Positions 8,259-56,734 of a DNA stretch of 64,000 bases are shown piece after piece (position 1 is the first letter of the stretch; the number at the start of each line of letters is the position of its first letter). The notes beneath the pieces are model-generated. The model was not told where the DNA came from. It did no database searches and worked only from the letters and a program-made list of their open reading frames with translations. Source of the DNA: Watersipora subatra (Eukaryota); NCBI RefSeq assembly GCF_963576615.1, contig NC_088716.1, positions 43,495,910 through 43,559,909 of the forward strand, written 5' to 3'. Position numbers and translations under genes: made by a program.

Positions 8259-9223
8259 ACATGGCTAGTGTGAAAATATATGACAAGGGCTACGCAGCTT
8301 CAATCGCGGCTAATGGTATGTTTTAAATGAGCTCCCTTGTACACACACAGCATGTATGTCCTCCAGTGGCTGCTTTTCATTCAATATAGCAATACGGATT
8401 CTTTACGCTTGATAGCTGTGTACTTGTCGCTTAGTAACCAAGATTAGCCTTACGTGATTGGCCTAGTAGCCGTGTCAATAGATAACACAACTACGCAAAC
8501 AAGTCTTTAGAAATGCCAACTAGGATTTCAACTCAATCACAAACAATGCCAGCAGTGGCTACACAATTGGTAGTGCTTCGCAAATCAATTCATTAAAAGG
8601 AGAGACCGCAATGCTCTACCGCAGTGCTTGAGAGTGTTTATAACATTTTCTCGGGTATTATATAACACCTCTCTAGCACCTGTAATCTTGTGTGATGTGC
8701 TGTTCTCTCCTATTAAGTTGGAAAAAATTAGGATTGGATTGTACACAAACTTCTATGCAGCACCCGGACTGCCACTGCTTTCAATGGTTCTTCGTAAAAA
8801 CAGCCTGGAGTTGATCACCATCTTTTTTTTTGGGCTTCTCTTTTTTTTTATCCTTTTTGCTACAAAAACAAGACTAAATACCAAACTTGTACTGGGAAAC
8901 TAGAAATGCTGGCAGTTAAATTGGATGTAATGTAATTGTGTTACTCTCTTAACACTCTGAGCAAGGAAAGTAAGTTTAGAAGAAGTTGTCATTACATTTT
9001 ACGCAAAGAGGCAAATGAAAATATTGTTTGAATTACTTTATTAAAAGCAAGTGTTGACAACTTCATTAATGACTTACAATGAGGCACACACTAATATGTC
9101 GAAGTCAGTTTTATTATCAATATTATTGATTTTTGATCCAACTTTATTCAGACTAAACATTGAGTTCTGAATCGTGAACCTTCATTTGTGCATCTCGGCA
9201 ACTTGAGCAACTGACTTAACAAA

Positions 9224-20200: not shown

Positions 20201-20700
20201 CTATTGTGTACTATATGAAATGCCTCATTTGTATTGAAAATGATACGACCTGTCACATATGCTTCGTGCCCTCTACCAGGTCGCTAAAAGTATTTGGCTT
20301 CAAAACTCAGTCTGGTTCCTGGAAACCGTCTGGCCGAAGAAAGTCAGTCTGGTTCCTGGGTACTGTCCTATCAAACACCCACCTGCAGGCTATCTGATTG
20401 ACAATGAAATAAATTCTGGACATAAGCGGGTCGACTGCTACAGTAAGCCAGAAGGTAGTTGATAAGTGCAGGTAATACAGTGTCAGACTGCTAGGCTGAA
20501 TGTCATGAGTTCGAATCCCGCGCAAAACAATCTTTATGAAGATAATAGAAGAACTTGAATTATTGCCTGTATTATGTATTCAGTGTGACGATTTTAAGCA
20601 AAATTAGAAGATAGTCAGAGTTTTGTAAGTAATAAGTAATAGACTGTCTTCCTGCTTAGCAGAATATCTTTACTATAATAGGAGTGGTACCCGTGATGTT
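17270..20700. repeat. Segmental duplication, copy A, in module order Y-Pro-X-Z.
   Basis: 17270-17830 matches 27395-28345; 17830-18400 matches 24720-25260; 18400-19380 matches 26430-27380; 19380-20700 matches 28560-30310. Each pair is roughly 90-95% identical by eye. Confidence 0.8.
17928..18398 (-). CDS. Proline-rich coding exon, paralogous copy A: ...PPLPPRVVPSAPPPQDRVFSLAPSSPQGVTSEAPPP...EMESKSEVKVMELAESVPQGMTS...RKRNENFQ|gtgaat.
   Basis: ORF 17865..18398 (-). Canonical donor 'AATTTTCAG|gtgaatc' at 17928/17927. It is ~85% identical to the 3' part of the exon at 24722-25976. The 5' boundary is not resolved, since the frame is still open above 18398. Confidence 0.5.
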
Positions 20701-23700
20701 AAAAATTATTGCGTGAGAAATGGGTTTTATGAGCAAACTACCAGAGGTCCATCCATTACCTTCGGCATATTTAATGTGGAAATGTAGGCCCACTCCGGGC
20801 AATGCCTGGCTCAATTCGCAGTCTTGGAACTTTCATTTTCCATATAAAAGCACCACAATCTATCTGATGAAAAATGCAAGAACGCGCCTTTCCTTGTTAA
20901 ATCACTTAAATGTCACTATTAGAATAAAAACACCTTGAAGCAAGAAATTGGGCTCAAAAATTTTAACGAACAATAAAATTATATACAGTAGTAAAACTTA
21001 CTTCTAGATGTTCCCATGATCGACCTTTAAGCTTTAAACTTTTTTAATTAACTTGTTTGAAAAATAAAAATTGAAATAGCTGAAATGTTCGATACGCAAT
21101 ATAAAACTAGAAGTCACATCATGTAATCTTTCACAAAAAAAGAAAATTGATGGTTAACCAATCTAAATCAAGTAGCAAAACATGGTCTGGGCAGATACGG
21201 CTCTAAACGTTTACACAGAACCAATAAAGTTAGGTGTCAATAAGACTAGATATTAAGTGAGACAGACAAACAAAATTTGAAGTCACCTCATAGACATCAT
21301 CTGCTTGAACAATGGTTAGGGTCAAAGACTTTTGTTAAACAAAGCATTAGAGTCATTTACTGATTGTCACATGGAACCACGAGAATCATTGCAAATTGAA
21401 AGGGCAGCCAGAAACTTTGTAAAAAGTTGTCTGAAGAGGGAAAAGATCATCTAGAGAGGAATTGCTCATTCCTAACATTAAATAATAAAACTAGTTTATT
21501 CAATGGCTGACTTGGCAGTCTGAGAATGTCAGAGACTATAAACTGGCATAATTAAGACATGAAAATTCTTGATATGCAGTTTTAAACAAAAAATAATACA
21601 TTGACACTGACCGATGTAATAAATAATTTATTTACCAAATAAAAATATACAGTTAGACTGATATAAGAGTAAATACTTATAACATGAGGTCATGTGATTG
21701 AGCAGCTCTTTGTGCTCACTGATTGGCTGGCAGTCACACTACTTATTTTAATCTAAACCATCAGTAGGCCTGGTGACGCTTGGGATGTTTCCTTATCAAT
21801 CAGATACCCTAAAGGTGAGTGTTTAGGAAGCTGGTTCATAGGAACCAGATGGAGTTTTGAGACCAAATACTTTAGTGACTTGACTAAATAAAAAAGTATA
21901 TGCCGGTGAAGTTTGGAAAACATCAGCCAGTAAACATCCACAATCTTTTCAAGAATATGATAAATAATAACAATGAATAGAGAAGTACTCTGGACAAAAA
22001 CTGAACGAACCTGTCACGGGTGCTGATCCCCGGGCCTTAGGAGGAGCATTCCAGCGCCGATCCACTAAATAGTAAGAAGACATATTATATGAGTAAAATT
22101 ATTACACAGAAGTAATTATACTCTACTAAACATAATTAGACTAACACAAAAGTAATGCATGATACAGACAGCAAAGACAGTGGCTTTATAAACACATGAA
22201 TGATGCTATAACTAGGTGGTAATAGCCTTAGGACCTCGATAGAGTCAGGTAATAATCATGCATATGATGATCACTCTCTCTTACGCTACAGATATCGAAT
22301 ACCGTTAAGTATTCGAGCAACAATAACTCGAGCTGACATTTCGGTGAAGAGTTAGTTTATTGGTTGGCTATGTGCCAAAGCTTAAGTTTATCCAAATCCT
22401 TAACAAACAAACACAACTCCCTTTCCCCATCAGCTTCTATCACGCATAAAGTTGTGTAATCAAGCAGATTATCTTCATGTCCACCAATCACCTGACTGCT
22501 GCCCCAACTCACTTCAATCTAACAATCACCTGACTGCTGCCCCTACTCACTTCAATCTAACAATCACCTGACTGTTGCCCCAACTCACTTCAATCTAACA
22601 ATCACCTGACTGTTGCCCCAACTCACTTCAATCTAACAATCACCTGACTGTTGCCCCAACTCACTTCAATCTAACAATCACCTGACTGTTGCCCCAACTC
22701 ACTTCAATCTAACAATCACCTGACTGTTGCCCCAACTCACTTCAATCTAACAATCACCTGACTGTTGCCCCAACTCACTTCAATCTAACAATCACCTGAC
22801 TGTTGCCCCAACTCACTTCAATCTAACAATCACCTGACTGTTGCCCCAACTCACTTCAATCTAACAATCACCTGACTGTTGCCCCAACTCACTTCAATCT
22901 AACAATCACCTGACTGTTGCCCCAACTCACTTCAATCTAACAATCACCTGACTGTTGCCCCAACTCACTTCAATCTAACAATCACCTGACTGTTGCCCCA
23001 ACTCACTTCAATCTAACAATCACCTGACTGTTGCCCCAACTCACTTCAATCTAACAATCACCTGACTGTTGCCCCAACTCACTTCAATCTAACAATCACC
23101 TGACTGTTGCCCCAACTCACTTCAATCTAACAATCACCTGACTGCTGCCCCAACTCACTTCAATCTGTTAATCACCTGACTGCTGCCCCAACTCACTTCA
23201 ATCTATTAATCACGTGGCTGCCTGGCTTTATGCCTGCTATGATTGATGTGTTCTATTTACATAATGTAGGAATGAATGGGTTGACAGGAACCTAATACAG
23301 GGTCAAGATGTGACAATAAATATTTTAAAATCTAAAATATCTAACAATTTCACCATTCAAGTATTTAGACGCTAAAATTCACACACCAAGTTTCTTGCCA
23401 CAACCTTTACCAAGCCGAAGATCTTTGAGATTCATGGAGGTGTTTTTCTATGACAACCACTATGATATTATTAGATCATATATGTTAACATGTTAATATG
23501 TTATATCTACATTAACTTAACAAACAGTTATAAACTTTTAACAGAAGAGTCATCTCATCAAATTTAGAAATATACCAACAAGTTATTTAACCGTTTTTGA
23601 GATGTTAACAGTTAATACCAGCACTTCCAACCAACATACATTCTTCCTTCTCTTCCATTACCCCCATAAAGATAACGTTACCAAACAATGCTGACGAATA

Positions 23701-23780
23701 TTCTTCGCAGTCCTCTACCGTTTCCTCCGCACAGTCCGTAACAGCAGCATAATACAATTCCATACCAGGAGAGAAACACA
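20680..23780 (+). repeat. Composite ~3 kb interspersed repeat, copy 1, ending in the 38-bp array and then the TATATACATACAG satellite.
   Basis: Collinear with 31930-35340 and 40125-43160. Shared landmarks: 'ggagtggtacccgtgatg', 'ttaaccaatctaaatcaagtagcaaaacatggtctgggcag' and 'caatcagataccctaaaggtgagtgtttaggaagctgg'. Confidence 0.75.
22485..23210. repeat. 38-bp tandem array, about 19 copies (aacaatcacctgactgttgccccaactcacttcaatct).
   Basis: Exact 38-bp periodicity. Shorter arrays of the same unit lie at 24538-24721, 34885-35078 and 41565-41755. Confidence 0.9.
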
Positions 23781-24062
23781 GTATATATACATACATACAA
23801 TATATATACATACAGCATATATACATACAATATATATATATAGTATATATACATACAGTATATATACATACAGTATACATACATACAGTATATATACATA
23901 CATACAATATATATATACATACAGTATATATACATATATTGTATGTATATATACATACAGTATATATACATACAGTATATATACATACAGTATATATACA
24001 TACATTATATATACATACAATATATATACATACAGTATATATACATACAGTATATATAGTAG
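23781..24062. repeat. (TATATACATACAG)n-type satellite.
   Basis: Direct repeats. The same satellite occurs at 43175-43608 and 52449-52705, each time abutting the conserved 'cgcacgggtaataaaa...ttgcacagaaaat' module. Produces the artefactual poly-Tyr/Ile/Cys ORFs. Confidence 0.9.
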
Positions 24063-24537
24063 ATTAATTTTTGGCGTCGCACGGGTAATAAAAACGTTTT
24101 TGCACAGAAAATTTACATTTAATCAGCATATGCAACATTTACCATTCTAACTTTCAAATGAAGGTTTTTGTTCATTTCCGTGTACTGTGTTTATTTATGT
24201 GTACTAAGCTTATTTCTGTGAAATTCATACTGCGCCGGCTACTGTGCCCACTACAGCTTTATACTGATTGCATTAGTTTTGTTGGTCGTGTGAGTTGAAG
24301 CAATTTTCTTCTCGTATGGGCTCGTATTGTTCTTCTGACATGGCTTCACGCATAGCGTTAGCTGAAGTGTCAAACATGAAGCCATGAAAGAGTGACACAT
24401 GTTTGTTGAACGATCCTTCAAATTTAGGCAAAAATTTAAGCACAAATTTAGGCAAAAAATGAAGTACAAAAAAATTAAATGCTGTAATAAATACAAAATT
24501 AGTATGAAATAACAGAATATTTGTAATTTTCCCAACA

Positions 24538-24721
24538 ACCACCTGAATGTTGCCCCAACTCACTTCAATCTAACAATCACCTGACTGTTGCCCCAACTCA
24601 CTTCAATCTAACAATCACCTGACTGCTGCCCCAACTCACTTCAATCTAACAATCACCTGACTGCTGCTCCAACTCACTTCAATCTAACAATCACCTGACT
24701 GCTGCCCCAACTCACTTAAAC
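24538..24721. repeat. 38-bp tandem array, about 5 copies, directly abutting the stop or donor of the proline-rich exon.
   Basis: Same unit as 22485-23210. It ends at 24721, one base before the TGA at 24722-24724. Confidence 0.85.
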
Positions 24722-25976
24722 TCACTCAATCACTTTCACCTCACTCTTCGACTCCATCTCAGAATGGAATGAGAGACTGAGATAGGATACGTTAGAGTAC
24801 TGTTCAGTTCGAGGTAGTGGTAATGCAGATGCCATACCTGCTGCTGAAGATACCCCACCTTGGGGTGGTAGCGCAGATGACACTCCTCGAGGCAGTAGTG
24901 GAGGTGCTACCGCTGCAAATGCATTTGCTTGAGATAGTAGCGGTGGTGGTGGTGGTGCTTCAGATGTCATAGCTTGAGACGATGATGGTGCTGCTGAAGA
25001 TACCCCACCTTGAGGTGTTGGTGCAGATGACAATACCCTGCCTTGAGGTGTTGATGCAAATGACCCTACCGTGCCTTGAGGTGGCAGTGGAGGTGGTATC
25101 GCAGCAAATGCATTTGCTCGAGATGGTAGTGGTGGTGGTGCTTCAGATGTCACACCTTGGGGCGATGATGGTGCTAGTGAAAATACCCTGTCTTGAGGTG
25201 GTGGTGCAGATGGCACTACTCGAGGTGGTAGTGGTGGTGGGGCGGCTCCAAATAGCATACCTTGAGTTTGCAGTGATGCTGATGCCCTATATTGAGGCCG
25301 TGCCATGGCAATGCGACAGGTTTGTCCGTAGTTTTCTACTGGGGAGTTTGGTACTGGGGATGATTTATTGGACACTTGAGAATCAAATCCGGCATCTTTT
25401 ATCTGGTTAGTTACAGAGATATCATCATCGAAACGTGCTGAGGATTGAGAAGTCATGAAGGATTTTATAGAAGATGAAGTTCGTACCTGAGGACTAAAGC
25501 CAGTCGTTTTTGAAGACCTTTTTTTCATTACTCTGCTAGGAGACAGTTTAACAGGCAAATCTAGTCCCTGGATTAACAGAGGTGCTGCTGAAGTCTTAGC
25601 ACCAAATGATTCAGACTGCTTCGCAAGATTGCACAGCTTTTGTGCAGACATTGGCAATGTGGTTTCAGACTCTTGAGTCATTCCAAAATTCTCCTCCGTA
25701 CCTCTTGTACTCGGCAGCGAATCTGTGGAGTTCATGTGAACATTTTCGTCATCCTTTGACACTGCTGAAAGAGCAGAGACACTTGAAAGGTTTGATAAAA
25801 AGTTTAGTCTAGGTCTAAACTTCTTAGCTGATCTAGGCAGAGAATATCTGGCAGAAGTTGGTGAATATTTTGGAGAAGTTGAAACATGAGCCGCTTCAAG
25901 GTCACCAGGAGGAAGTGGGAAAGAGAGAGATGAACTGAGAGGTTGAGACATTGAAGAGGTGCTCTGCATCCCATAA
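24722..25976 (-). CDS. Large proline-rich coding exon, paralogous copy B (~418 codons). It has a Ser/Thr-rich N-terminal part, followed by repeated PPPLPP / APPPQ / SSAPTPQGGVSS motifs resembling an FH1- or WASP-like proline-rich tract, and ends EMESKSEVKVIE followed by TGA.
   Basis: ORF 24722..25987 (-), whose 'M' is a TTG. Minus-strand acceptor 'tttgaatttag|GTTATGGGATG' at 25977/25976. The TGA forms part of 'ATTGA|gtgagt', so it may alternatively be a splice donor. It is immediately followed by the 38-bp tandem array. Confidence 0.55.
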
Positions 25977-27924
25977 CCTAAATTCAAACAGTACTTTTAT
26001 CATCCCAAGATCATTCAATCAAGTAGGCTTGCATACAATAGATTTTGCTAGAGTGAATGATGGTAATCAGTAACCTTAGCACAACCCATTGCCTTTAAAT
26101 GTAGCCATGCAATAATTAAATACTGTTTTTAAGGAAGTCTTCAAAAAATCACAATGTAATGACTTATTTTAATTTTGTCTTAAAAATGTTAAACGATGTA
26201 TTGTAAAAGAATTATAAAAACAAGTTTAATATACACTGGTATAGTTTAACTCAAAGTCCTTATCAATATATGGTAGAATCAATCAACTAAGCAGGCTCTA
26301 AAAATCTGTTGACGCTCGCTAACACTCTTAGGAGAAATTATAATAATTTAGTTAATTACTTTTTGTGTTTTTTTGTGTTTTATGTTTTTGTGTTTATATG
26401 TTTGTGTTGATTTTTGTGTTTACTATAGTATTTCGGGTTTCTGTAAACTGACAGCCAAGCTAAAATTTATTAAATCCAATCTCTATCTAAAAATCAGCAA
26501 GTCTTATTATCTTATACATGTACTCCAACTATAATATATTATGGCAAGACAAAGCGTAGTTCTTAATTGATTAAAATACACTAGTGTGCTTGTGCCTTTG
26601 CACGCATTTTGAGTTTTAAAGAACACTTTGCTAATCCATACAGTGCAACCTCAGGTTACAATTTTTATCCATTACAGAGTTGGCATCGTATGGGGAGAAA
26701 ATCGTATAGAGAGGTATAGAAAGCATAGTAATTATATAATGCGAACATCCCCTGCTAAAAATCATCAAAACTTTATACAAGTATACTGTACAAATTAAAA
26801 ATTAGCAACAATGTAGTAGATTAACTTTGGTGCCTATAGTTATCTACATCAACTTTAGTATATTTAGAGTATTTATTGGTTATAATCTGCATTAAAATGT
26901 AACATTGGAATGCGCTATGAGCAGTACATACCGTAGAAGGTTCTTACCTTCAAGACAGACAGATGTATAACATAGACTTTTAATTCATTTTAAATGAGTT
27001 TAGCTTACTAAACACATATTTAAAGCTAAGTTTTTGTATGTATTTTTAAACTATTTTATTGAATTTCAACTTTTCACTACTAAAATTTTATCACCTATCG
27101 GTTTCTGGCTCTGTTTTCAGTGTAACTTTTAGTCGACTTGATTAAAACCTTTTTAATCTAATTCGCCAGGAAGCCTGAGCTATGCTGTTCTCGAAGATGT
27201 TCTGTTTAATATCTAATGAAGTGGATTTTTGTTAGCAGGTTAAAAGAAGTTGCCTGACCACTGAACTTCCGTTTGAAGGGACTGCAAGTCTAACTTTGCT
27301 ACTGGTTTTTAAGGGAAAATATTAGTATTTTTCACATGAAAAATGCTGAACTGAGAGAAATTCTAGACTAATTGTCTAGAACTAGCCTAGAACAAACAGC
27401 ATCAGTAACTAAAATCTAGCTGCAACAGATCAAACATCTGACTCTAACCACATTCTCAGACAGGTTTCAAGGGTAGTTAAGGTGAATAGGGCAATTTGAC
27501 TCGGTGCTTCCTGAATGAACACATTTTGAACAAACTTAAGCGTCCAGGAAGAGGGCTGGCAAATATATTATAAAACATCTCAAAACATACGCAATTAAGA
27601 ACAGATTTTGTTGCTTTCTACGCAGCATTAAGAAAAAAGGTAAAGACTTGCATTATGATGGAGTGATATTGTCTTTCCGTTCATTGAACTTGCCTGAAAG
27701 ATTATCCAAACCAATATTATAAAAGTCATTGAGTTCAAACATTCAGTAAACTGGCAATAAATTCTTCTTGAAACTCCAGAAAAAACAATTGACAGCAACT
27801 TATTATTTTATCAATAGTTGGGAATGTCTAAAAAATGCTATGCATACAAAAATCTACTGTATACTACATAGTACAGAAAGTGCAATTCTGGTGGGTAACT
27901 GTAATTTACATGTATATGGCTTTA

Positions 27925-28305
27925 CTGTTATTATTATTATTATTATATTATATGGCTTTACTATTATTATTACTATTATATGGCTTTACTATTATTATTA
28001 TATTATATGGCTTTACTACTATTATTACTATTATATTATATGGCTTTAGGGGCCTACTATTATTATTATATTATATGGCTTTACTATTATTATTATATTA
28101 TATGGCTTTACTACTATTATTACTATTATATTATATGGCTTTACTACTATTATTATTATATTATATGGCTTTACTATTATTATTATATTATATGGCTTTA
28201 CTACTATTATTACTATTATATTATATGGCTTTACTATTATTATTATATTATATGGCTTTACTATTATTATTACTATTATATTATATGGTTTTACTATTAT
28301 TCAAC
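27925..28305. repeat. Expansion of ~50-bp units (tatatggctttactattattattat-like), present only in copy B.
   Basis: The copy A ortholog (17790-17815) has a single unit. Produces the artefactual poly-Leu/Tyr ORFs 27768..28315. Confidence 0.85.
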
Positions 28306-29406
28306 TAGCCCTTAATAATGCCTGTGAGATAATGCCTGCAGCTTGTTCCAAGCTGAATAAATTTTAGCTTGGCTTTCAGTTTACAGAAACCCGAAATACT
28401 ATAGTAAATACAAAAACCAACACAAACATATAAACACAAAAACATAAAACACAAAAGATAATTAACTAAATTATTATAATTTCTCCTAAGAATGTTAGCG
28501 AGCATCAACAGATTTTTAGAGCCTGCTTAGTTGATAGACTAGTTCTCTAGAACTAGTCTCTAAGTTCTAGAGAACTAAGAGACTGTATCGCGTCTCTTTC
28601 ATGCATGGTGAGAATGTTTTCGGTGAGCAGCATTTTGGCGTCTTCGTTATTTCCATGTACGTAATAAGCATACTGACTGCCAAATTTTAATCCAAGCAAA
28701 AAATTTGTTGAATTGGTATGGTGAAATAAGATTCGTATGGCGAGGCAGAAAAATAATCATGTTCCAGTTCGTCAGGTGTAAACTCATATAACAGGGTAAT
28801 CGTATCCTGAGGGTGCCAATGATATCTGTATTAACAAATCCCACACTTTCATCATAAGTCTGTCTGTTAGTCCGTGTAGGTATCATGTTTCCACATTCTT
28901 GGCTGATTTCATCCAAACTTCACACGCATATGTGACAGGTGACATATGTGACAGGTGACATATGTGACAGGTGACATATGTGACAGGTGACATATGTGAC
29001 AGGTGACATATGTGACAGGACATATCATTATCAATACAAATGAGGTCAGATAACAAATTATTTTACAGCCCTATGTAACAGAAAAATTTCTCAGCTTTTC
29101 AATACTGTTTTCGGAATTGGAAATAGTGCCATCGGTGCACAATTGAAAAGGTGCCGTTAGTCAATATGGTCAACATCAAAAAAACTGAGAAATTTGTTTC
29201 CAAAAAAGATGGATTGGATTTTAAATAGTATCATCTATTTATGTTTAGGGAGGTCATTTCAACCGCACCCTACGAGCATTACATTTTTATGAATGTTAGA
29301 AATGGCTTGGCTTCACACAAGTTTAAGCCACATTGTTAATTAGACTTTGAGAGGCTATCGTGCACTATATGAAATGCCTCATTTGTATTGAAAATTATAC
29401 GACCTG

Positions 29407-29914
29407 CATACATGCCAAGTCTCCCGGTTTGGCCGGGACCCTCCAGTTTTTTAAGTCAGTCTCCCTTTTGCACAAAATCTCCCGTTTTCCTCCAGCTTTT
29501 TCAAATAAAAGTAGTGGTTTAATTTTTTTCTTTGCCGTTCTCCTTTTGTTTACTAGTTGTGAGCCCTCATCATCATACAAAGTTAGCAACAATGAAACAG
29601 ATCGCTATTAAACCGTATGTTTGCCATAAAACCTGGGCTATTTAGATTTAGCAACATTGATGTCTAACGATTTGCTCTACAGTTTTTCATCAATAAACAA
29701 AGATTATACATGGAGCTGTGACATATCGTTGGCAAACGACCATGACCTCACATTGATAGTAGAGTACCTGAACATTAAATAAAATCGTGAAAGGGCCTCC
29801 TATGTAAGTACCAATGAAGAAAAAAAACTTCACAAAGAAATCTAGGCTTCAGATTCAACTACTACATTTACCGTCAATCTCATGCTTTTTTTTCTCAACT
29901 ACTTGGCAAGTATG
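29407..29914. mobile_element. Non-autonomous hAT-like MITE (508 bp) with 14-bp TIRs (catacatgccaagt ... acttggcaagtatg) and a perfect 8-bp TSD, acgacctg.
   Basis: TSD at 29399-29406 and 29915-29922. An empty site in paralogous copy A (~20235, 'gatacgacctgtcacat') carries a single acgacctg. An 8-bp TSD is characteristic of hAT elements. There is no transposase ORF. Confidence 0.75.
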
Positions 29915-31929
29915 ACGACCTGTCACATGTGCTTCGTGCCCTCTACCAGGTCGCTAAAAGTATTTAGTTTCAAAACTCAGTCTGGTTCCTGGAAACCGTC
30001 TGGCCAAAGAAAGTCAGTCTGGTTCCTGGGTACTGTCCTATCAAACACCCACCTGCAGGCTATCTGACTGATAATGAAAGAAATTCTGAGCATAAGCGGG
30101 TCGACTGCTACAGTAAGCCAGAAGGTAATCGATAAGTGCAGGTAATACAGTGTCAGACTGCTAGGCTGAATGTCATGAGTTCGAATCCCGCGCAAAACAA
30201 ACTTTTATGAAGATGATAGAAGAACTTGAATTATTGACTGTATTATGTATTCAGTGTGACGATTTTAAGCAAAATTAGAAGATAGTCAGAGTTTTGTAAG
30301 TAATAAACTGTCTTCCTGCTTAGCAGAATATCTTTACTAGCCTAGGACACTTTTGCATTCGCGTCATCTAACTTTCAAATTTTCGCGGAGTCATTCATCT
30401 CGCGAAAATTTCATGAGCGAAACTAAACTATCATAACGAACGAGCGAAAACGCGAACTTAAATAGCTTTGTTCATTGATATCCACAAGAAAATCATCTAA
30501 TTAGAAATGCAGGTAACCTTTGTGTGTGGTTGGGCTCGTTGGGCAATTTCTGCTAAACTCATTATAGCTAATACGCCGACTGAGCAGCGTGGCAAAGCAA
30601 ATTGAGATAACAAGTTCTTTTGGAAAAGCAGGCCTGTATTCTCTGGTTGCAAATTGGGGCAGCTAATGTTAGGCGACTAGTTATGAGCATCTGGGGGTTT
30701 GGAGGGGCTGTATCAGCCCCCTCAACAGGTTTCTTTCATGTAGGGCCTCAACCGGGCATCTCACGTAAAGTTTTAAAATATTTTATCGGAAAGTATAAAC
30801 ATTGTTTCTTTAATTTGAGATTTGTTTGTTTTAGGTGATGTGACTGCTAGGACGTTTTCAGATTAAAACAGGCTAAGCTTGACCGCAGTTAAAACGCTCA
30901 GAAAAAAGACATCTTTTTTCTTTTGAGTGTTTCAACAAAGATCAATTTTGCCGATTTTATTTTTAGTTCATCCAAAGGTTTTTACGCTTTCGTTGGGCCA
31001 TTGCCAAATAGATGTTTGGTAAAACTTGACCTTTTGCAAACCTTTATAAAAGTCGTTAACAAAAATATTTTGCCAATCATGATAATAATGACGCCCAAGA
31101 ACTGTTAAAAGTTAACGTTTATCTCTATGGCTTGGAATAAAGTGATATTCTACAGCGATAAAAACCGTTCCCGTTAGACAAATAACTGTTCGAGTTAATG
31201 ATGTTGAGGTCGAATTATCTAAAGCACTTTATCATTACATGGGAACAGACCACAGAAATCCATTCGTGTTAACCAAGTGTTCGTGATAAAATTTTACATT
31301 CTATCCGAAGGCGAGTTCTCCGAGTTTGACTATACTTAGCCGCCAAAAATTCCTAAAAAGTTGGGGCGGCTCAGCCGGCCAGCTGTCCCAGGGAATACGG
31401 GCCTGTGGAAAAGCCAAGACAAATGAAGAAGATGATGATATTAGTTTAGTCACTGAATTTGTAACTGATGCGGATGAAAGTCTGGTAGGGAAAGTCATAA
31501 AATTGAATAATAATTATTGTAGCGATGAATTTTATTACCAACCAAAAACAATAACAACCTTGAGCCATGGCCACCACGTGCTATAAATACTTGAGATATA
31601 ATATTGGTGCCACATCAGCCACGGCGGGCAAGGGCAATGACCTAGACGTCATTGATAGTCCAAGAAACATATAGTAGCAAGCGATCAAATTGCATTGTTG
31701 ATCTCGCCCACACATTTCTACCCGCAATTCACAAATACAAACTAGTCTCAAATTGAAAAATTCTTTTACTAGTGAACTGGACCTGAGGAATCCAATTATG
31801 TTTGTTCTACTGCATTTATTTTCACATCCCTATATCTTCGCACTCATCAGATCCGCGAAATTAAGTTGTAGCGAAATTTTACTCTGTATGCTACTCACGA
31901 AAATAAATACTAGCGAAATATAAAGTGTC

Positions 31930-34900
31930 CGGGATATAATAGGAGTGGTACCCGTGATGTTAAAAATTATTGCGTGAGGAATGAGTTATATGAGCTGACT
32001 ACCAGAGGTCCATCCATTACCTTCGGCATATTTAATGTGAAAATGTAGGCCCACTCCGAGCAGTGCCTGGCTCGATTCGCAGTCTTGGAACTTTCATTTT
32101 CCATATAAAAGCGCCACAAGAACGCGCCTTTCTTGTTAAATCGCTTAAATGTCACTATTAGAATAAACACACCTTGAAGCCAGAATTGGGCACAAAAACT
32201 TAATGAACAATAAAATTATATACAGTAGTAAAACTTACTTCTAGTTGTATCATGTTCCCTTGATCGACCTTTAAGCTTTAGGATTTTTTTAATTAACTTG
32301 TTTGAAAAATAAAGTTTGAAATAGCTGAAATGTTCAATACCCAATATAAAATTATAAATCACATCATGTAATCTTTCACAAAAAAAAGAAAATTGATTGT
32401 TAACCAATCTAAATCAAGTAGCAAAACATGGTCTGGGCAGATACGGCTCTAAACGTTTAAACAGGACCAATAAAGTTAGGTGTCAACAAGACTAGATATT
32501 AAGTGAGATAGACAAAAAAAATTTGAGTTCACCTCATTGACATCATTTGTTTAAACAACAGTTAGGGTCAAGGACTTTTGTTAAATAAAGCATTAGAATG
32601 TTTACTGATTGTCACATGGAGCTACGAGAATCCATGGAATATGAAAGGGCAGCCAGAAACTTTATAAAAAGTTGTCTGAAGAGGGAAAAGGTCATCTAGA
32701 GAGGAATTGCTCATTCCTAACATTAAATAATAAAACTAGTTCATTCAATGGCTGACTTGGCAGCCATTGAATAAATAATTTGGTAAATGATTTATTTACC
32801 AAATAAAAATATACAATTAGACTGATATAAGAGTAAATACTTATAACATGAGGTCATGTGATTGAGCAGCTCTTTGTGCTCACTGATTGGCTGGCAGTCA
32901 CACTACTTATTTTAATCTAAACCATCAGTAGGCCTGGTGACTGCTTCGAATGTTTCCTTATTAAAGAATAGAGAAAGCATAATATTATTATGCTTTATTA
33001 GTTATCTTCAGGTGTTGACTGATGTTCTAAAAAAAGAATCAAGGAGATTGACCCACTAGAAGCTGAGATATAGCCAGCCAAACACAGGTCTACCTAATAA
33101 AGAATCAGAGGAAAACCCTTCGAAAATCCCGAAAACTGTGACGTATAAAATCGACTTAATGTTCATGTGCCGGAGTTGCGCACCCTTACCGCCGTTACGT
33201 ATAATGATTGTTTTGGCTACGAGATGTGAAACGCTTCTCGCGATAGTAAATAATTTACAGACTAGCTCTGGTTTCTCAGGAAAATCAAGCAAACATTGTG
33301 TGGTAAAGGCATTTACCCACAACCCCTCGCTGTGATTTTTCAAAACAGAAGAGCATATTTTGACTATTGTGCTTCAAATTTTAACTCGGTCTCCACGGAT
33401 ATGCTCCGAAGATCCTCTGTTCAACTAACGGCGCGTGTATGGTCTATATGCGACATCCGCGATTGCAGTTTGTTTAGAATAAGAAATGGGAATGTGAATT
33501 TTTGTTCATTCATCATTTTTCTACTGTGTATCTACTGCAGCATTTAGTTGATTTTCATTATTATCGTCACTATTAACAGACTGTAAGTTCACCACGGCCA
33601 TAATCTTAAAAAGAATAACTTGACCGTGCTGCTCTTGCTGTAAGAAAAGAAAACGATAATTTTTGATTTGATTTTTCTATTGATCTATTATCTTATCTAT
33701 GATTATTTTTTATGATTGATATAATAATCATAATGCATATTATACAAAATAATAATATAACTGCGTATAGAATAAATGATGTAGGCTAACTAATATAATT
33801 TGTAAAAAGTGATAGCAGAATGTTGCGAAATAATAGATGCGTGTAATTATTTTATTCTAAAACTAATCTACACGTCAGAGGGACTGGTTCGGAATTCTCA
33901 GAGCAATGATCGTTAGGCCCAATTTGATTGTTCTATACTTCCAGGGTTTAAACCAATTAAAACGCCGTGATTGTTATAGGAGAGCGCATTAGTTGGCTTA
34001 ATTGACCAATAGCACACAAGTCGATTTCATACGTCATATATCGATGATTACCAAAACACTTATGTTTTTTGGTAGACCTGTGTTTGGCTGGCTATATCTC
34101 AGCTTCTGCTTGGTCAATCTCCTTGATTCTTTTTTTAGAACATCAGTCAACACCTCAAGATAAATAATAAAGCATAATAATATTATGCTTTCTCTATTCT
34201 TTAATCAGATACCCTAAAGGTGAGTGTTTAGGAAGCTGGTTCATAGGAACCAGATGGAGTTTTGAGACCAAATACTTTAGTGACCTGACTAAATAAAAGA
34301 GTATATGCCGGTGAAGTTTGGAAAACATCAGCCAGTAAACATCCACAATCTTTTCAAGAATATGATAATGACAATGAATAAAGAAGTACTCTGGACAAAA
34401 ACTGAACGAACCTGCCGCAGGTGCTGATCGCCGTGCCTTAGGAGGAGCATCCCAGCGCCGATCCACTAAATAGTAAGAAGACATGTTAGATGAGTCAAAT
34501 TATTACACAGAAGTAATTATACTCTACTAAATATAATTAGACTAACATAAAAGTAATACATGATACCGACAGCAAAGACAGTGGCTTTATAAACACATGA
34601 ATGATGCTATAACTAGGTGGTAATAGCCTTAGGACCTCGATAGAGTCAGGTAATAATCATGTATATGATGATCACTCTCTCTTACGCTACAGATATCGAA
34701 TACCGATGAGTATTCGAGCAACAATAACTCAAGCTGACATTTCGGTGAAGAGTTAGTTTATTGGTTGGCTATGTGCCAAAGCTTAAGTTTATCCAAATCC
34801 TTAACAAACAAACACAACTCCCTTTCCCCATCAGCTTCTATCATGCATAAAGTTGTGTAATCAAGCAGATTATCTTTATGTCCACCAATCACCTGACTGC

Positions 34901-35340
34901 TGCCCCTACTCACTTCAATCTAACAATCACCTGACTGTTGCCCCAACTCACTTCAATCTAACAATCCCCTGACTGTTGCCCCAACTCACTTCAATCTAAC
35001 AATCACCTGACTGTTACCCCAACTCACTTCAATCTAACAATCACCTGACTGCTGCCCCAACTCACTTCAATCTGTTAATCACGTGGCTGCCTGGCTTTAT
35101 GCCTGCTATGATTGATGTGTTCTATTTACATAATGTAGGAATGAAAGGGTTGACAGGAACCTAATACAGGGTCAAGATGTGACAGTAAATATCTTAAAAT
35201 CTAAAATATCTAACAATTTCCCCATTCAAGTATTTAGACGCTAAAATTCCCACATCAAGTTTTTTGCCACAACCTTTACCAAGCTGAAGATCTTTGAGAT
35301 TCATGCAGGTGTTTTTGTATGAAACACACTACGTTGTTAT
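31930..35340 (+). repeat. Composite interspersed repeat, copy 2, interrupted by a nested TIR element and 3'-truncated at ~35340.
   Basis: Collinear with copy 1, except for the insertion at 32960-34205. Confidence 0.75.
32960..34205. mobile_element. Nested non-autonomous TIR element (~1.25 kb) with ~130-bp terminal inverted repeats.
   Basis: 32960-33095 is the reverse complement of 34070-34205 ('ttaaagaatagagaaagcataatattat...ccaaacacaggtctacc'). The element is absent at the homologous point in copy 1 (21775 'ttccttatcaatcagatacc') and copy 3 (40868). Its internal ORFs show no transposase motifs. Confidence 0.7.
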
Positions 35341-40124: not shown

Positions 40125-43100
40125 CATGAAGTTTGAATTAGCTGAAATGTTCAATACCCAATATAAAACTAAAAGTCACATCATGTAATCTTTCATAGGA
40201 AAAGAAAATTGATTGTTAACCAATCTAAATCAAGTAGTAAAACATGGTCTGGGCAGATACGGCTCTAAACGTTTACACAGGACCAATAAAGTTAGGTGTC
40301 AACAAGACTAGATATTAAGTGAGATAGACAAACAAAATTTGAGTTCATCTCATTGACATCATTTGCTTAAACAATGGTTAGGGTCAAGACCTTTAGTTAA
40401 ACAAAGCATTAGAGTCATTTACTGATTGTCACATGGAGCCACGAGAATCATTGCAAATTGAAAGGGCAGCCAGAAACTTTGTAAAAAGTTGTCTGAAGAG
40501 GGAAAAGATCATCAAGAGAGGAATTGCTCATTCCTAACATTAAATATTAAAACTAGTTCATTCAATGGCTGATTTGGCAGTCTGAGAATGTCAGAGACTA
40601 TAAACTGGCATAATAAAGACATGAAAATTCTTGATATGCAGTTTTAAACAAAAAATAATACATTGACACTGACCGATGTAATAAATAATTTATTTACCAA
40701 ATAAAAATATACAGTTAGACTGATATAAAGAGTACAAACTTATAAAATGAGGTCATGTGATTGAGCAGCTCTTTGTGCTCATTGATTGGTTGGCAGTCGC
40801 ACTACTTATTTTAGTCACACTACTTATTTTAATCTAAACCACCAGTAGGCCTGGTGATGCTTGGGATTTTTCATTATCAATCAGATACCCTAAAGGTGAG
40901 TGTTTAGGAAGCTGGTTCATAGGAACCAGATGGAGTTTTGAGATCAAATACTTTAGTGACCTGACTAAATAAAAGAGCATATGCCGGTGAAGTTTGGAAA
41001 ACATCAGCCAGTAAACATCCACAATTTTTTCAAGAATATGATAAATAATAACAATGAATAGAGAAATACTCTGGACAAAAACTGAACGAACCTGTCGCAG
41101 GTGCTGATCGCCGGGCCTTAATAGAAGCATCCCTGCACCGATCCACTAAATAGTAAGAAAACATGTTATATGAGTCAAATTATTACACAGAAGTAATTAT
41201 ACTCTACTAAACATAATTAGACTAACACAAAAGTAATGCATGATGCCGACAGCAAAGACAGTGGCTTTATAAACACATGAATGATGCTATAACTAGGTGG
41301 TAATAACCTTAGGACCTCGATAGAGTCAGGTAATAATCATGTATATGATGATCACTCCCTCTTACGCTACAGATATCGAATACCGATAAGTATTCGAGCA
41401 CCAATAACTCGAGCTGACATTTTGCTGAAGAGTGAGCTTAATGGTTAGCTATATGCCAAAGCTTAAATTGATCCAAATCCTTAACAAGCAAACACAACTC
41501 CCTTTCCCCATCAGCTTTCTATCACGCATGAAGTTGTGTAATCAAGCAGATTATCTCTATGTCCACCAATCACCTGACTACTGCCCCAACTCACTTCAAT
41601 CTAACAATCACCTGACTGTTGCCCCAACTCACTTCAATCTAACAACCACCTGACTACTGCCCCAACTCACTTCAATCTAACAATCACCTGACTGTTGCCC
41701 CAACTCACTTCAATCTAACAATCCCCTGACTGCTGCCCCAACTCACTTCAATCTATTAATCACGTGGCTGCCTGGCTTATGCTTGCTATGATTGATGTGT
41801 TCTATTTACATAATGTAAGAATGAAGGGCTTGACAGGAACCTAATACAGGGTCAAATTGTGACAATAAATATCTGAAAATCTAAAATATCTAACAATTTC
41901 ACCATTCAAGTATTTAGGCGCTAAAATTCTCCCACCAAGTTTCTTGTCACAGACACCCTTTACCAAGCCGAAGGTCTTTGAGATTCATGTAAGTGATTTT
42001 TTGCATGACAACCACTATGATATTATTGGAGCATATATGTTATATCTACATTAACTTAACAAACAGTTATAAACTTTTAACAGAATAGTCATCTCATCAA
42101 ATTTGGAAATATGCCAACAAGTTATTTAACGGGTTTTGAGATGTTAAAGGTTGACTTGCAACAAAATTCACATTACCGTTATTTGATATGAAAAGATTCA
42201 CCATGTCTTACTCTGTTGTGTTGTAGGTGCAAAATATGTGGAAAGGTGATTACAAGCTCTTAAAAGCTCAAAAACGAACAGAAAATCGCGGCCACACGAG
42301 ACCGCCGTAGTTTGGATTCCCTTTCCAAAACGGCTCAAATGTGATGTAGTTGTGAGAGATGGTTTCCGTTTACACTTTCTTGCAACCTTAATCGTCGAAA
42401 TATTTTCACAAATATACTTCACGCATTCAATAAAACTATGTCTATTGATCTTACGCGTCTGTTTTATTGTCATCGTAATGCTGGCACTTTTAGCACTGAT
42501 ATCTTATAACTTACCGTGAAAAATTCGTTAAACTTTTTAACCTTACCTCGAATGAGTACATATCATTGTCTGATAATCGTGACGAGCCTGTTGGTCACCT
42601 GTGATAATCGAAAAGTGCTGCAAAAATTATTTGCGAAGTATTGGGTCACGTGATCAGATTACGACTTGACGATTGAATAATGCCGGAACAAAACTGTAAA
42701 GTAGCGAACATCTATATTCGATACGGGGTCTTCGGTGAAACCCGAAGTGTTTGTCATAAACTAGTACTGCGATAAGTTTTATATTGAGCTTTGTATTGGC
42801 CTTTCAATTAACGTGAGAATATACGTGACAAGACGATAACCAAATTTCGTGGTTACGTCATCGAAATAAAGAGAGTCCAATCTACGGCGGCTTTTCGTTT
42901 TTGAGCTTTTAAGAGCTTGTAATCACATTTCCACATATTTGGCACTTACAACACAGCAGAGTAAGACATGGTGAATCTTTTGATACCAAATAACTGTAAT
43001 GTGAATTTTGTTGCAAGTCAACCTTTAACAGTTAATAACAGCACTTCCACCCAGCATACATTCTTCCTTCTCTTTCATTACCTCCATACAGACAATCTTC

Positions 43101-43160: not shown

Positions 43161-43174
43161 TGGAGAGAAACACA

Positions 43175-43608
43175 GTATATATACATACATACATACATAC
43201 ATACAATATATATACATACAGTATATATACATACAGTATATATACATACAATATATATATACATACAGTATATATACATACAGTATATATACTGTATGTA
43301 TATATACTGTATGTATATATACATACAGTATATATACATACAATATATATAAATACAGTATGTATATATACATACAATATATATACATACAGTATATATA
43401 CATACAGTATATATACATACAATATATATATACATACAGTATATATACATACAGTATATATACTGTATGTATATATACTGTATGTATATATACATACAGT
43501 ATATATACATACAATATATATAAATACAGTATGTATATATACATACAATATATATACATACAGTATATATATATATCTACAGTATATATATAGTATATTA
43601 ATTTTCGG
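43175..43608. repeat. (TATATACATACAG)n-type satellite.
   Basis: Same family as 23781-24062. Source of the artefactual ORFs 43032..43692. Confidence 0.9.
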
Positions 43609-45467: not shown

Positions 45468-45758
45468 ATGGATGATAAGGAGTGTGTCTTCCATTGTGTG
45501 GAAATTTGTGGGGAAACCTTGGTTAGGGTCACAGCACAGCAGTGGAAAACTGCTCAGGAGTACACACGGAAGTGGACTGAGTTGGATGATGAACTTAACA
45601 TAGTAATTGCAGCTAACATTCTTGAACATGAGTCACACACAAACCTTGTTTGTCACTATGCATGCTACAAAAAATACTGCAATAAGTTACTCTTGGAAAG
45701 AGCTGAGGCCAGACATGGGAAGAGAAAATCAGCAGAGGATGCTGCCAGCTCTGAAGAG
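45468..45758 (+). CDS. Exon 1 (97 codons) of a large transposon-like gene: MDDKECVFHCVEICGETLVRV...HTNLVCHYACYKKYCNKLL...SSEE. It is Cys/His-rich and looks like a putative zinc finger.
   Basis: ATG in a good Kozak context (aaaagcATGG). Donor 'GAAGAG|gtgggtac'. The phase is continuous through exons 2-5. Confidence 0.6.
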
Positions 45759-46038
45759 GTGGGTACTGTGGTGTCCATCCATTTCACCACTGGGCACTGA
45801 ATAATGTTGCTCTTCATTGTTTTTATTGCCATTGTGATACACATAAATTATATATTTATTATTAATAAATCTCTATATTCATATTGTTTTACAAGTTTAG
45901 TAAGAGCAAAGCAATGTCATTTGTGCTCCATTTGTGTTAACTTATTTGAAAGTTTACATGGTGTTTGGTGACTTCCGTCCATGTTATAGTCATGCACTGT
46001 TACAATGACTGTTTATTTGTGTCATGAGTTTATTCTAG

Positions 46039-46198
46039 AAAACCACAAAAAGAACAAGGTCATTTGGCACTGTTAGAGGAACTGGTCCTCGTTTACCTCA
46101 GTTGTGCATCATATGTCAGAAGAAAGATAAATGGTTGAAGAAATCGGGAAAGAAAACTGTAAGAGATACGCTAGTCAAAGCACAAACCTTGACAGCAG
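46039..46198 (+). CDS. Exon 2 (phase 0 to 1): KTTKRTRSFGTVRGTGPRLPQLCIICQKKDKWLKKSGKKTVRDTLVKAQTLTA.
   Basis: Acceptor 'ttattctag|AAAACC' and donor 'GACAGCAG|gtgatg'. Confidence 0.55.
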
Positions 46199-46313
46199 GT
46201 GATGAATCAAGTCTTGTTACAAATAGGCTGCATGATTATGACGACCTACTTAGCCCTTTATTACTTCCAAAATAACCAATCGACATAAATTTTTGGCATT
46301 CACTTTTTTATAG

Positions 46314-46476
46314 GATTGCTGATTGACTACACCAGAAGACGGCCAGATGGACAAAAGGTATTGGATTTAATTGGTCAGGACCCAGATTTGGTAGCTATGG
46401 AAGCGAGATACCACAGAGTATGTTTCAGAGAATTCACCCGCCAAGACTTTAGGACAACACAGCCAGCCGTACAAAG
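46314..46476 (+). CDS. Exon 3 (phase 1 to 2): GLLIDYTRRRPDGQKVLDLIGQDPDLVAMEARYHRVCFREFTRQDFRTTQPAVQ.
   Basis: Acceptor 'cacttttttatag|GATTGC' and donor 'GTACAAAG|gtaagcc'. Confidence 0.55.
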
Positions 46477-46706
46477 GTAAGCCATTTTGTTTGCCTGCAA
46501 TCAATCTAACTTGAACATATACTGTATATAAGAGAATAGAGAATATATCTATATCTCTAAGATATAGATATATAGATATATACTAAGATATATATCTATA
46601 TCTTAGAATAGAGCTATCTAGCAATGGCACATTACCTTGTTAAATTCTGGGCTTTTTGGGGTCATTGGTGAAAGTTTTTCATTGCTTTTTATATTGATGC
46701 TTTCAG

Positions 46707-46865
46707 AGAATCAGATCCATACACTGAAACGTACCGGAAATACTTTATGCCATTCATCCAGAAAAAGATTGTAGAGCAAGGCAAAATATATAGATTGGTG
46801 GCACTGACCAAAGTCTTCACCAAAATGATAAACAAGTATGAGGATAAAGCCGTCAAAACATTTCA
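46707..46865 (+). CDS. Exon 4 (phase 2 to 2): RESDPYTETYRKYFMPFIQKKIVEQGKIYRLVALTKVFTKMINKYEDKAVKTF.
   Basis: Acceptor 'gatgctttcag|AGAATC' and donor 'CATTTCA|gtaagtgg'. Confidence 0.55.
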
Positions 46866-47029
46866 GTAAGTGGCGACATTGAAAAACTAATAATATTCTT
46901 TGATGGCAAAACTTATTCACAGTAGGTCTGAATAAATATGATAGCATGTGTTACGATGTGTTACTCTAGATCTGGATGTGTTTTTTTTTGCTAAAAAAGT
47001 TCAAATCATGGCTACTTTTTTATTTATAG

Positions 47030-48875
47030 GGCAGAACAACTGAAGCGCTTACTACAACGAGACTGCCCAACTTTGATTATGCATGCACAGACAAAGAAAG
47101 AAGGTATAAATGTCTACCATCCATCAGCAGTTGATCATTGCAGCGATGAAGACACTGATACATACACAACAGATGATGCTGCCTCACAGTACTCCATGAG
47201 CCCTCTCAAGTTAGGTGGGACACACAATTTACAAACTCCCCTCCAATCAGCCTACTACACTCAAATCATGTTAAGCAATTCTTTAGATGAACACTCCTAC
47301 AAGACGCCATGGCCTTTAACATCTGCCCATGTCAATCTCAAATCATTTGAAGAATCTGTACCTGAGGAAATTTTGCAATTTGTTGGTACACTCCTGCAAT
47401 CTCGCTCAGGGATGCCTATCCCACATTCTGATAAAGTCAAAGTCACTTCAGTTTGCCAGGATTTGGTTATGCTCATGTCAAAGGGTCAGCTTACTACTCC
47501 AAAAGCGTTGGCATTGGGGCTAGTTGTCAAACATTTGACTGGATCTAAAGAGCTGATAAATATTCTTCATAACATGGGGCACTGTGCATCATATGACAGC
47601 ATACAGAGGTATGAAACATCACTTGCTATGCACTCACTTGAAAACCAGTCAAAAGTGCCAGACAACTTTGAGTATGGACAACCCATAGTGGTGGTATGGG
47701 ATAACATAGACTTCTTGGAAGCGACGAGAACGGGCCACAATACTACACAACACACAAATGGGATATTACTTCAACTACGTTTCCAAAAACCCAAAACCAA
47801 AACAGACAAACAAAATCGACCACGCGGTGGAACTAGAACACTAATCCAATTTACTGAATCAATAGACCACCTGCCCACATATTCAAGAACAAACCCTGCA
47901 CATTTGAATGCAGTTGAGATCTCTCCCATACAAAGAATTCTTGACACTGACATTCTTGAGTTCCAGTTTGCCCTTGTACGCAGGCAAAACGAATACAGCA
48001 AGCCTAGCTGGACTGGTTTCAATAAGATGTTTAGGCAAGCTGAAAGCTCTCCCAAAACTGAGATTATGTACCTGCCAGTGATACAGGCTGCCCCTACTGA
48101 TATTGAGGTTGTAAATCAAGTTCTTCAGAAAAGTATCGATGACGCTGACAAGTTTGGTATAGAAACTGCAGTAGTAGTGTTTGACCAAGCTATATATTGT
48201 AAAGCACAAACTATTCGCTTCCTCAATCCCATTCTGATGTCAAGACTTGTCTCTAGATTAGGAGATTTCCACACAGTGATGGCTTTTCTTGGTGTGATAG
48301 GCAAAAGGTATGGTGATGGTGGGTGGGCTAAAATAATCACAGAATCGCAATGTATCGCTGAAGGAAGCCTGAAAGGGGTGATCAATGGTCACAGTTACAA
48401 TAGGTCCATCATGGCACACAAACTTTGCATGGAAGCACTGTATGACCTATTGTTGGATGAATTCGCTGAAAGTCTTGAATCCTCTAGTGCCCTTGACTTT
48501 TTTAGTTTGTACGTTAGTAGAGCTGTTTCCAATCACACTGAATGTAATCAATCTGAACTCGCCCACATGAATCAGGCATTCCAAGAGTTTATAGTCACCT
48601 CTTCAAAAGGCAACCCCACATTTAGATTCTGGGTAGAGTATATTGAAATGGTGACACAACTGCTAAGTTTTGTCCGCGCCACAAGGGAATCTGATTGGAA
48701 CCTCCATGTCAACTCACTACATAGACTCTTGCCATGGTTTTTTGCATACGACCACTCTAACTATGCAAGGTATGGGCACACTTTACTATATGGAGATGAC
48801 GCAGCTGGCAAAGACTCACCCCCTAATTTACCAAGCAATGACAGATCACCGTGGTTATTCTACCTTTCAATATGA
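47030..48875 (+). CDS. Exon 5, the large central domain (~600 codons) of the transposon-like protein. Motifs seen: VVVWDNIDF, AVVVFDQAIYCKAQTIRFL, LGDFHTVMAFLGVIGKRYGDGGW, HKLCMEALYDLLLDEF.
   Basis: Acceptor 'tttatttatag|GGCAGAAC' at 47030. The frame is continuous with ORF 47073..48875. The open frame ends at 48875, but homology continues in another frame, so a frameshift lies near 48780. Confidence 0.6.
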
Positions 48876-56452: not shown

Positions 56453-56734
56453 CAGTGGTGTGAAAAATAAATGGACCACCTTATAAAACTTGGTCATTGC
56501 TAGCGCTCAGCACTCAAGGTGATTAAATCCCTCATTAAGCTCTTGTTATTGAGTAGAACCTATACATAGTATACATCAAAAGAAAGCTTAGAATGAGTAG
56601 AACTTGATGAAACTAATTTTAGCTTGAAACAACAATGTTAGATAAGTTTTAGAGAGAGTCAAAGTTAGCAATTATTTTTGGCATTTCCACTCATTTTGAA
56701 TAAAATTAAACCTTTATTTTATTTATGTTCAAAC

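Follow-up and report, generated by a model that had tools for sequence, protein, structure and literature searches.

Within a 64,000-nucleotide stretch of the Watersipora subatra genome (NCBI RefSeq assembly GCF_963576615.1, contig NC_088716.1, forward-strand positions 43,495,910 to 43,559,909; hereafter the window, with positions counted from its first letter), one copy of a duplicated segment carries 508 bp that its paralogue does not. What are these 508 bp, and did one copy gain them or the other lose them? The window is eukaryotic and repeat-rich (~35% GC), with many minisatellites, and an earlier reading of its letters (the original prediction) had proposed a hAT-like miniature inverted-repeat transposable element (MITE) that arrived after the duplication. 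We followed up this proposal with alignments of the duplicated copies, scans for the element's termini in metagenomic and genomic contigs, and protein domain searches. The sequence is most probably (about 0.9, in our estimate) a non-autonomous, MITE-type hAT element that keeps only the termini of a FAM200/ZBED5-like (Buster-type) transposase lineage, and that inserted into copy B of the segment after the duplication.

Boundaries of the element and its empty site

The features on which the argument turns are as follows, with the terminal inverted repeats abbreviated as TIRs and the target site duplication as TSD.

29407–29914, + strand (defined as the orientation that puts the TCCC[G/T]-repeat end 5'): hAT-type element, 508 bp, 37% GC, delimited by the empty site and the TIRs
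29399–29406, no strand: left TSD copy, ACGACCTG, the same letters as at 29915–29922
29915–29922, no strand: right TSD copy, ACGACCTG, from direct reading of the sequence and a repeat search
29407–29420, + strand: 5' TIR, CATACATGCCAAGT, from an inverted-repeat search of the window
29901–29914, + strand: 3' TIR, ACTTGGCAAGTATG, from the same inverted-repeat search
29421–29500, + strand: 5' subterminal module, with TCCC[G/T] at element positions 16, 56 and 74 and CCTCCAG(T/C)TTTT twice
29855–29900, + strand: 3' subterminal region, with TCAACTACT twice, dissimilar to the 5' end
20245–20252, no strand: unoccupied target ACGACCTG in copy A, present once

The two TIRs agree at 13 of 14 positions (CATACATGCCAAGT against CATACTTGCCAAGT, the reverse complement of ACTTGGCAAGTATG; mismatch at position 6), and the complementarity between the ends of the element ceases past position 14. 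The bases just beyond the two ACGACCTG copies are unlike (t/g upstream, c/t downstream), and the direct repeat is therefore exactly 8 bp long. hAT elements have TIRs of 10–25 bp and TSDs of 8 bp (PMC3942097), a definition that takes in the 14-nt TIR and 8-bp TSD found here. MITEs are short, lack coding capacity and have TIRs and a TSD (PMC3942097), and all of this holds for the 508-bp element: none of its open reading frames (ORFs; the longest at most 83 aa) showed homology, blastx against all hAT proteins that we fetched was empty, and an exact-protein look-up of the 65-aa ORF inside it found no record. Both the element and its TIR occur once within the window; as the MITE label usually implies high copy number, the term is descriptive here.

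The duplicated unit comprises copy A (~17.3–23.5 kb of the window) and copy B (~24.7–35.4 kb). Further partial copies of the unit lie near 40–44 kb and 53–54 kb, and the insertion site is covered by A and B only. In a MAFFT alignment against copy B with the element removed, copy A is short of exactly one 8-bp unit. The flanks of the two copies are 95.4% identical over 1262 aligned bases, i.e. 4.6% divergent (94.7% identical over ±300 bp), with 6 gap events in these 1.26 kb. The exact empty site in copy A therefore places the insertion after the A/B split, and insertion into copy B after the copies had separated (~4.6% divergence) is supported.

On these points the original prediction held up well. 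Its element at 29407–29914, with 14-bp TIRs and one mismatch, proved exact to the base by reading and by script, its perfect 8-bp duplication was found on both sides, the empty site fixes the same boundaries in the A/B alignment, and its post-duplication dating has the support of that exact site. The single uninterrupted target that it placed in copy A also exists, at 20245–20252 and not at ~20235, an error of ~10 bases.

Could the element instead predate the duplication, and have been lost later from copy A by precise excision or by recombination between the 8-bp TSDs? A deletion between the 8-bp repeats would leave exactly one ACGACCTG, as observed. hAT excision normally leaves footprints, with the hairpins formed at the flanks repaired imprecisely (as for Hermes and Ac), and copy A carries no footprint. 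Within flanks that are 4.6% divergent, the two TSD copies remain identical and the TIRs agree at 13/14. Moreover, two other insertions with TSD types of their own are confined to copy B, and gain in B is the parsimonious account of all three. We consider a loss from copy A very improbable and retain a post-duplication insertion into copy B.

The two other insertions found in copy B are of different kinds. A ~1.59-kb insertion at 30340–31926, not present in copy A (~20675), is flanked by TA, has imperfect TIRs (GCCTAGGACACTTT... / ...AAAGTGTCCGGGA) and looks like a Tc1/mariner-type non-autonomous element. The second, of ~1.24 kb at ~32958–34206 and likewise not in copy A (~21796), has ~140-nt TIRs (32960–33101 and 34065–34205, 95% identical) and TTAA at both edges where the copy A site reads TCAA, which suggests a TTAA-targeting MITE of piggyBac- or Kolobok-like type. 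Transposons continued to arrive in copy B after the duplication, as three independent insertions with 8-bp, TA and TTAA flanks.

Chance as a source of the layout

Indels between paralogues are common in this segment (6 gaps in 1.26 kb) and rearrangements are many, which leaves room for an explanation with no mobile element at all, in which chance repeats surround an indel produced by a microhomology deletion in A or by filler in B. We scanned the window for 8-mer direct repeats 50–3000 bp apart with TIRs of at least 13/14 immediately inside. Apart from matches in low-complexity AT-rich or minisatellite tracts, and artefacts from the palindromic 8-mers of two long inverted repeats, the 508-bp element was the only match, and the same scan of 30 shuffled windows (Markov-1 random sequences) returned 0 matches. 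At boundaries fixed by the empty site, the analytical probability is ~1.6e-7 for the 13/14 TIR and ~1.5e-5 for the 8/8 repeat. In another organism, ~100 elements flanked by 8-bp TSDs have the same termini (see below). The indel explanation is effectively refuted, and we give it next to no weight beside a transposon insertion.

One source of the false matches is an inverted repeat with ~190-nt arms (26279–26471 and 28356–28538, 91% identical), again through palindromic 8-mers. It encloses ~1.9 kb, including a minisatellite at 27906–28301, and could represent a foldback structure or a further TIR element.

Relatives bounded by the same termini

A metagenome scan with the 19-nt 5' terminus (CATACWTGCCAAGTCTCCC) retrieved 100 contigs (L001–L100), mainly from two JGI samples (Ga0224501 and Ga0224511). 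Their median GC content is 42.5%, against ~35% in the window, and they have no further sequence in common with it; the contigs therefore come from a different organism. Four of them (L003, L026, L037 and L082) were set aside as chance 19–20-mer matches in bacterial or fungal-like contigs. A scan of viral contigs with the terminus gave 0 matches.

About 90 of the contigs hold copies of one ~1.49-kb non-autonomous element, mutually 85–90% identical. Its consensus matches the window element at 33/38 nt of the 5' end and 16/16 nt of the 3' end (reverse complement), and its 14-nt TIR is that of the window element, with T or A at position 6. The two elements are also asymmetric in the same way, with a TCCC[G/T]-rich 5' side and a 3' side that begins ...AAGTAG. 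The 3' start CATAC(T/A)TG(C/T)CAAGTAG is common to the window element, the 1.49-kb family and a further relative, L104 (described below).

TSDs were scored on independent full-length insertions. Six events have a perfect 8/8 duplication (L002, L035, L057, L064, L093 and one nested composite, GCCTAGGA); the composite was counted once, since there the element sits inside a different repeat that was amplified afterwards. Duplications of 7/8 flank L038 and L039 (a 385-bp sub-family), and duplications of 6/8 flank L023, L073 and L089. Control pairs that used an internal pseudo-terminus reached 0–4/8. The metagenome relatives with the same TIR start and stop at the same terminal bases as the window element.

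The family has structural peculiarities of its own. The internal pseudo-terminus, CATACTTGCCTAGTCTCTCGC, lies ~240 bp from the 3' end, self-nested copies are inserted at the element's own position ~300, and L089 contains a 48-bp 'solo-ends' mini-element. Long ORFs on the metagenome contigs were tried as transposases and rejected, as they were host ankyrin/WD40 genes or had no Pfam match.

hAT coding sequence behind the termini

P, Zisupton, Merlin and Novosib elements also have roughly 8-bp TSDs. TSD length alone cannot separate hAT from these groups, and coding sequence is therefore the decisive evidence. If the element belonged to one of them (P/THAP9-like, Zisupton/KDZ, Merlin or Novosib), its hAT-like ends would be convergent or captured. 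The Drosophila P element starts with CATG, to which the CATAC... of the window element bears a loose resemblance, unlike the CAG or TAG of typical hAT elements. At 45468–50752 the window also contains a large degenerate transposase-like gene with a weak match to DUF6589, which may belong to the KDZ/Zisupton-like group.

The consensus of the 1.49-kb family encodes a zinc-finger first exon (MSKKPKYSCKFQKEW...CSFCNTDF...GGKHD.DVTRH...GKTH) that ends at a GTAAGT donor-like site, and P0001 is an intact version of this exon. The same exon type (P0034) lies ~400 bp behind the CATACTTGCCAAGTGTCCCGG... terminus of a TARA scaffold (L103). The Logan contig SRR31840191_377402 (L104) contains a complete ~1.5-kb element with a finger exon (P0035) inside, and this element agrees with the window element at 31/33 nt of the 5' end and 24/28 nt of the 3' end. 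The 14-nt TIR recurs in both L103 and L104, with T or A at position 6.

When finger P0001 was run exhaustively with phmmer against 1.84 billion representatives, it was linked to the N-terminus of P0069, and also to P0040 and P0046. The finger exon had no significant Pfam match, zf-BED included, and P0069 itself had no significant match in Pfam or PDB sequence searches; the hAT classification was therefore made through the full-length homologues of P0069 (650–700 aa), which carry PF14291 (DUF4371), PF27073 (FAM200-ZBED5_RNase-like) and PF05699. In hmmscan, Dimer_Tnp_hAT scored above the curated cut-off in P0107, P0102, P0110 and P0083; P0107 reached 40.4 bits against a cut-off of 21.4 and also matched PF27073. 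Names given to the transposases of the relatives include ZBED5-like, FAM200B and SCAN domain-containing 3-like. The Pfam family names, together with the identity of ZBED5 and Buster1 (PMC3606216), suggest a Buster-type placement.

Two relatives join hAT coding sequence and termini in one element. At L106:9737–11007 lies a 1.27-kb deletion derivative with the termini CATAGTTGCCAAC/GTTGGCAACTATG and 8-bp flanks that agree at 7/8; it encodes residues 27–213 and 622–666 of P0102, i.e. N- and C-terminal hAT remnants. In Mytilus californianus (GCA_021869535.1), L109:5386–8847 is an intact 3,462-bp element with perfect 13-nt TIRs (CAGACCTGCCAAC) and a two-exon gene for a 663-aa hAT transposase (P0107), whose N-terminus is a finger of the same type. 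Over the first 24 nt, the Mytilus element agrees with the window element at 19 positions, where the background reaches a maximum of 13 and a mean of 6.

hAT-type coding sequence is thus joined to this terminus type in four independent relatives (the 1.49-kb family, L103/L104, L106 and L109), and no THAP, KDZ or Merlin-type domain adjoined any copy of the terminus that we examined. The element at 45–51 kb has no terminus in common with the MITE. Another superfamily with ~8-bp TSDs therefore keeps a slim chance, and membership in hAT is the reading that we carry forward. Two candidate partners were rejected. P0110/L108, considered as an autonomous element with the terminus, had neither a TIR nor a TSD that matched, and the transposase-like ORF set at 45–51 kb had no terminus or sequence in common with the MITE.

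The hAT-like label of the original prediction, which had been drawn from TSD length alone, now has the support of coding sequence behind related termini. Its expectation that other copies would show the same boundaries and 8-bp TSDs came true for relatives in another organism, not for copies of the element itself. The autonomous partner that it envisaged was not found in the window, and the intact Mytilus element with homologous termini (19/24) is the nearest match to it.

Subterminal repeats and a model of mobilisation

Beyond the TIR, all of these elements have TCCC[G/T] motifs at conserved positions, in an array confined to one of the two ends. Within the first 120 nt, the motif stands at positions 16, 56 and 74 of the window element, 16, 56 and 85 of L104, 16, 36 and 62 of Mytilus L109, 16, 36, 56, 75 and 86 of L103, and 16, 36, 67, 75 and 86 of the 1.49-kb consensus. 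Three motifs in the first 120 nt of the window element were reached by 11 of 20000 shuffles. The array, with its ~20-nt spacing, is a presumed transposase-binding site.

With no coding capacity, the element must be mobilised in trans. We propose that a hAT transposase encoded elsewhere in the genome of this host would recognise the 14-nt TIRs and the asymmetric subterminal repeats, notably the 5' TCCC[G/T] array, by analogy with related systems. The enzyme would cut the element out and integrate it at a new site cleaved with an 8-bp stagger, whose repair would yield the two ACGACCTG copies. Such cut-and-paste chemistry is established for hAT enzymes such as Hermes, and we infer the same route of excision and integration for the window element. 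Copy B would have been hit after A and B had separated, with copy A retaining the unoccupied target.

Observations that weigh against a Buster-type hAT element

Several observations count against this assignment. The superfamily call is made through terminal homology (~40 nt at the 5' end, ~16–28 nt at the 3' end) to elements of other organisms, and termini linked to hAT transposases were found in such relatives only. Neither at the DNA nor at the protein level does the interior of the element resemble the autonomous relatives. A single copy of the element was seen in the 64-kb window, which contains no second terminus and no gene for a hAT transposase of this lineage.

Both the start of the element and its target sites depart from common hAT patterns. 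The usual hAT start is quoted as (C/T)A(A/G)NG, a soft feature that is not strictly defining; the CATAC termini of the window element have T at position 3 and C at position 5 and do not conform, and the CAGAC start of Mytilus L109 agrees at position 3 and not at position 5. For target sites, the Ac consensus is reportedly nTnnnnAn (Arensburger et al. 2011), and this pattern occurs in 2 of the 10 oriented TSDs, the window ACGACCTG not among them. The Buster target consensus, nnnTAnnn (PMC3499496), is likewise present in 2/10 of this small sample, and again not in ACGACCTG. The Mytilus element is flanked by a 6-bp duplication (AATCAT) in place of an 8-bp one, as judged against an adjacent uninterrupted paralogous site. 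That empty site is supplied by a locally duplicated 169-bp repeat at L109:5186–5400 and 8840–8870.

Three tandem copies of the zinc finger are also found in P0033, a POGZ-like pogo-derived protein, so that a finger does not by itself identify a protein as hAT. P0033 has 1776 aa and contains zf-POGZ, HTH_Tnp_Tc5 and DDE_1 domains; its finger possibly reflects domain capture between transposon families, or domestication.

Distribution, novelty and significance

Four or more unrelated sources yielded near-identical termini, namely the window host, a eukaryote of a JGI metagenome (42% GC), a scaffold of TARA plankton and a Logan run. Mytilus carries a recognisable homologue of the terminus. The hallmark of a lineage that may unite them is an unusually conserved, asymmetric 5' end of ~40 nt, in which CATAC(A/T)TGCCAAGT is followed by TCCC[G/T] motifs ~20 nt apart; its second mark is an N-terminal zinc finger that does not score as BED. 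Recent horizontal transfer between marine animals could account for non-coding ends as conserved as these.

In the searchable literature, with Repbase and Dfam outside the search, the terminus sequence returned only unrelated primer or codon strings, and we found no name for the 1.49-kb family or for the ~1.5-kb L104 element. The family of the window element may be undescribed. That the element belongs to an uncatalogued and widely dispersed marine hAT lineage is a tentative proposal, which we think rather unlikely.

The 508-bp element is a real and base-exact but biologically ordinary post-duplication hAT insertion. Animal genomes rich in repeats routinely contain non-autonomous hAT insertions that postdate a duplication and leave the paralogous site empty, and such an insertion carries little weight alone. 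As a base-exact marker, the element polarises the history of the duplicated segment and documents transposon activity after ~4.6% divergence, and exact ends for this hAT lineage are useful in repeat annotation. The TCCC[G/T] array offers a ready candidate for a transposase-binding site, and the intact copy in Mytilus californianus is a candidate for an active source element.

Other features of the window

Just downstream of the insertion site, both copies contain a tRNA-like B-box (GAGTTCGAATCCCGCGC; ~30130–30200 in B and ~20470–20540 in A). A tRNA-derived short interspersed element was considered for this motif and rejected, with ARAGORN and Rfam both negative.

The gene at 45468–50752 (+ strand) is a run of ORFs of 110, 600, 150, 268, 93, 110 and 104 aa, by appearance one degenerate gene of ~1,700 aa. 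Its DUF6589 match (E 0.0049) is below the cut-off, and its homologues are mostly unannotated metagenome and Logan proteins, the best named ones being 37–39% identical (the gastropods Patella and Gigantopelta and the sea urchin Diadema). The gene is probably transposon-derived. A remnant of a non-LTR (long terminal repeat) retrotransposon occupies 59449–61585 (+ strand), with an RVT_1 ORF (372 aa) followed by a 283-aa ORF (60734–61585) whose zf-RVT match is below threshold; an exact-protein look-up of this 283-aa ORF found no record either.

Minisatellites common to the duplicated units lie at 22480–23220, 24534–24733, 34886–35090 and 41567–41771, and more arrays are found at 23780–24060, 43170–43570 and 54064–56470. 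The arrays include 38-bp-period and TATACA-type repeats and explain the strong GC-skew excursions at 6–8 kb and 22–24 kb.

Comparison with known systems

The closest counterparts of the window element are the 1.49-kb family and L104, which are like it in the 14-nt TIR, the 5' TCCC[G/T] module and the 3' start. Unlike it, they are ~3x longer, keep the first exon of a transposase and have unrelated interiors, and they belong to other organisms (GC 42.5% and 38% against 35%, with no other common sequence). As its interior is unrelated to that of the autonomous relatives, the window element is not a simple internal-deletion derivative.

The Drosophila willistoni Mar and BuT2-MITEs and the hobo-MITEs resemble the window element in size (~0.5–0.9 kb), in being non-coding, in keeping the outermost hAT ends, and in their short TIRs and 8-bp TSDs (PMC3517528, PMC3942097). 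They differ in being multi-copy and in having their autonomous counterpart in the host or a related genome; here one copy was seen, and the counterpart is known from other organisms only.

The Buster family is a phylogenetic grouping of transposases that includes Buster, ZBED5 and FAM200 (Arensburger 2011, cited in PMC3942097 and PMC3606216). The window element departs from it in its start, CATAC(A/T)TGCCAAGT in place of a CAG...- or TAG...-type start, in TSDs that mostly lack nnnTAnnn (2/10 with it), and in the N-terminal finger of its relatives, which Pfam zf-BED does not score. It resembles the Buster clade (TcBuster and AnBuster, with the domesticated ZBED5/Buster1 and FAM200A/B) in its 8-bp TSD, 14-nt TIR and asymmetric ends, and the transposases of the linked relatives carry the Buster-like combination of FAM200-ZBED5_RNase-like, DUF4371 and Dimer_Tnp_hAT domains. 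In active Buster elements, TIRs of 14–16 bp are insufficient alone, and AnBuster needs 135–240 bp of its left end and ~126 bp of its right end (PMC12637253). This asymmetry of the ends, and the need for sequence beyond the TIR, parallel the conservation that extends past the TIR in the window element.

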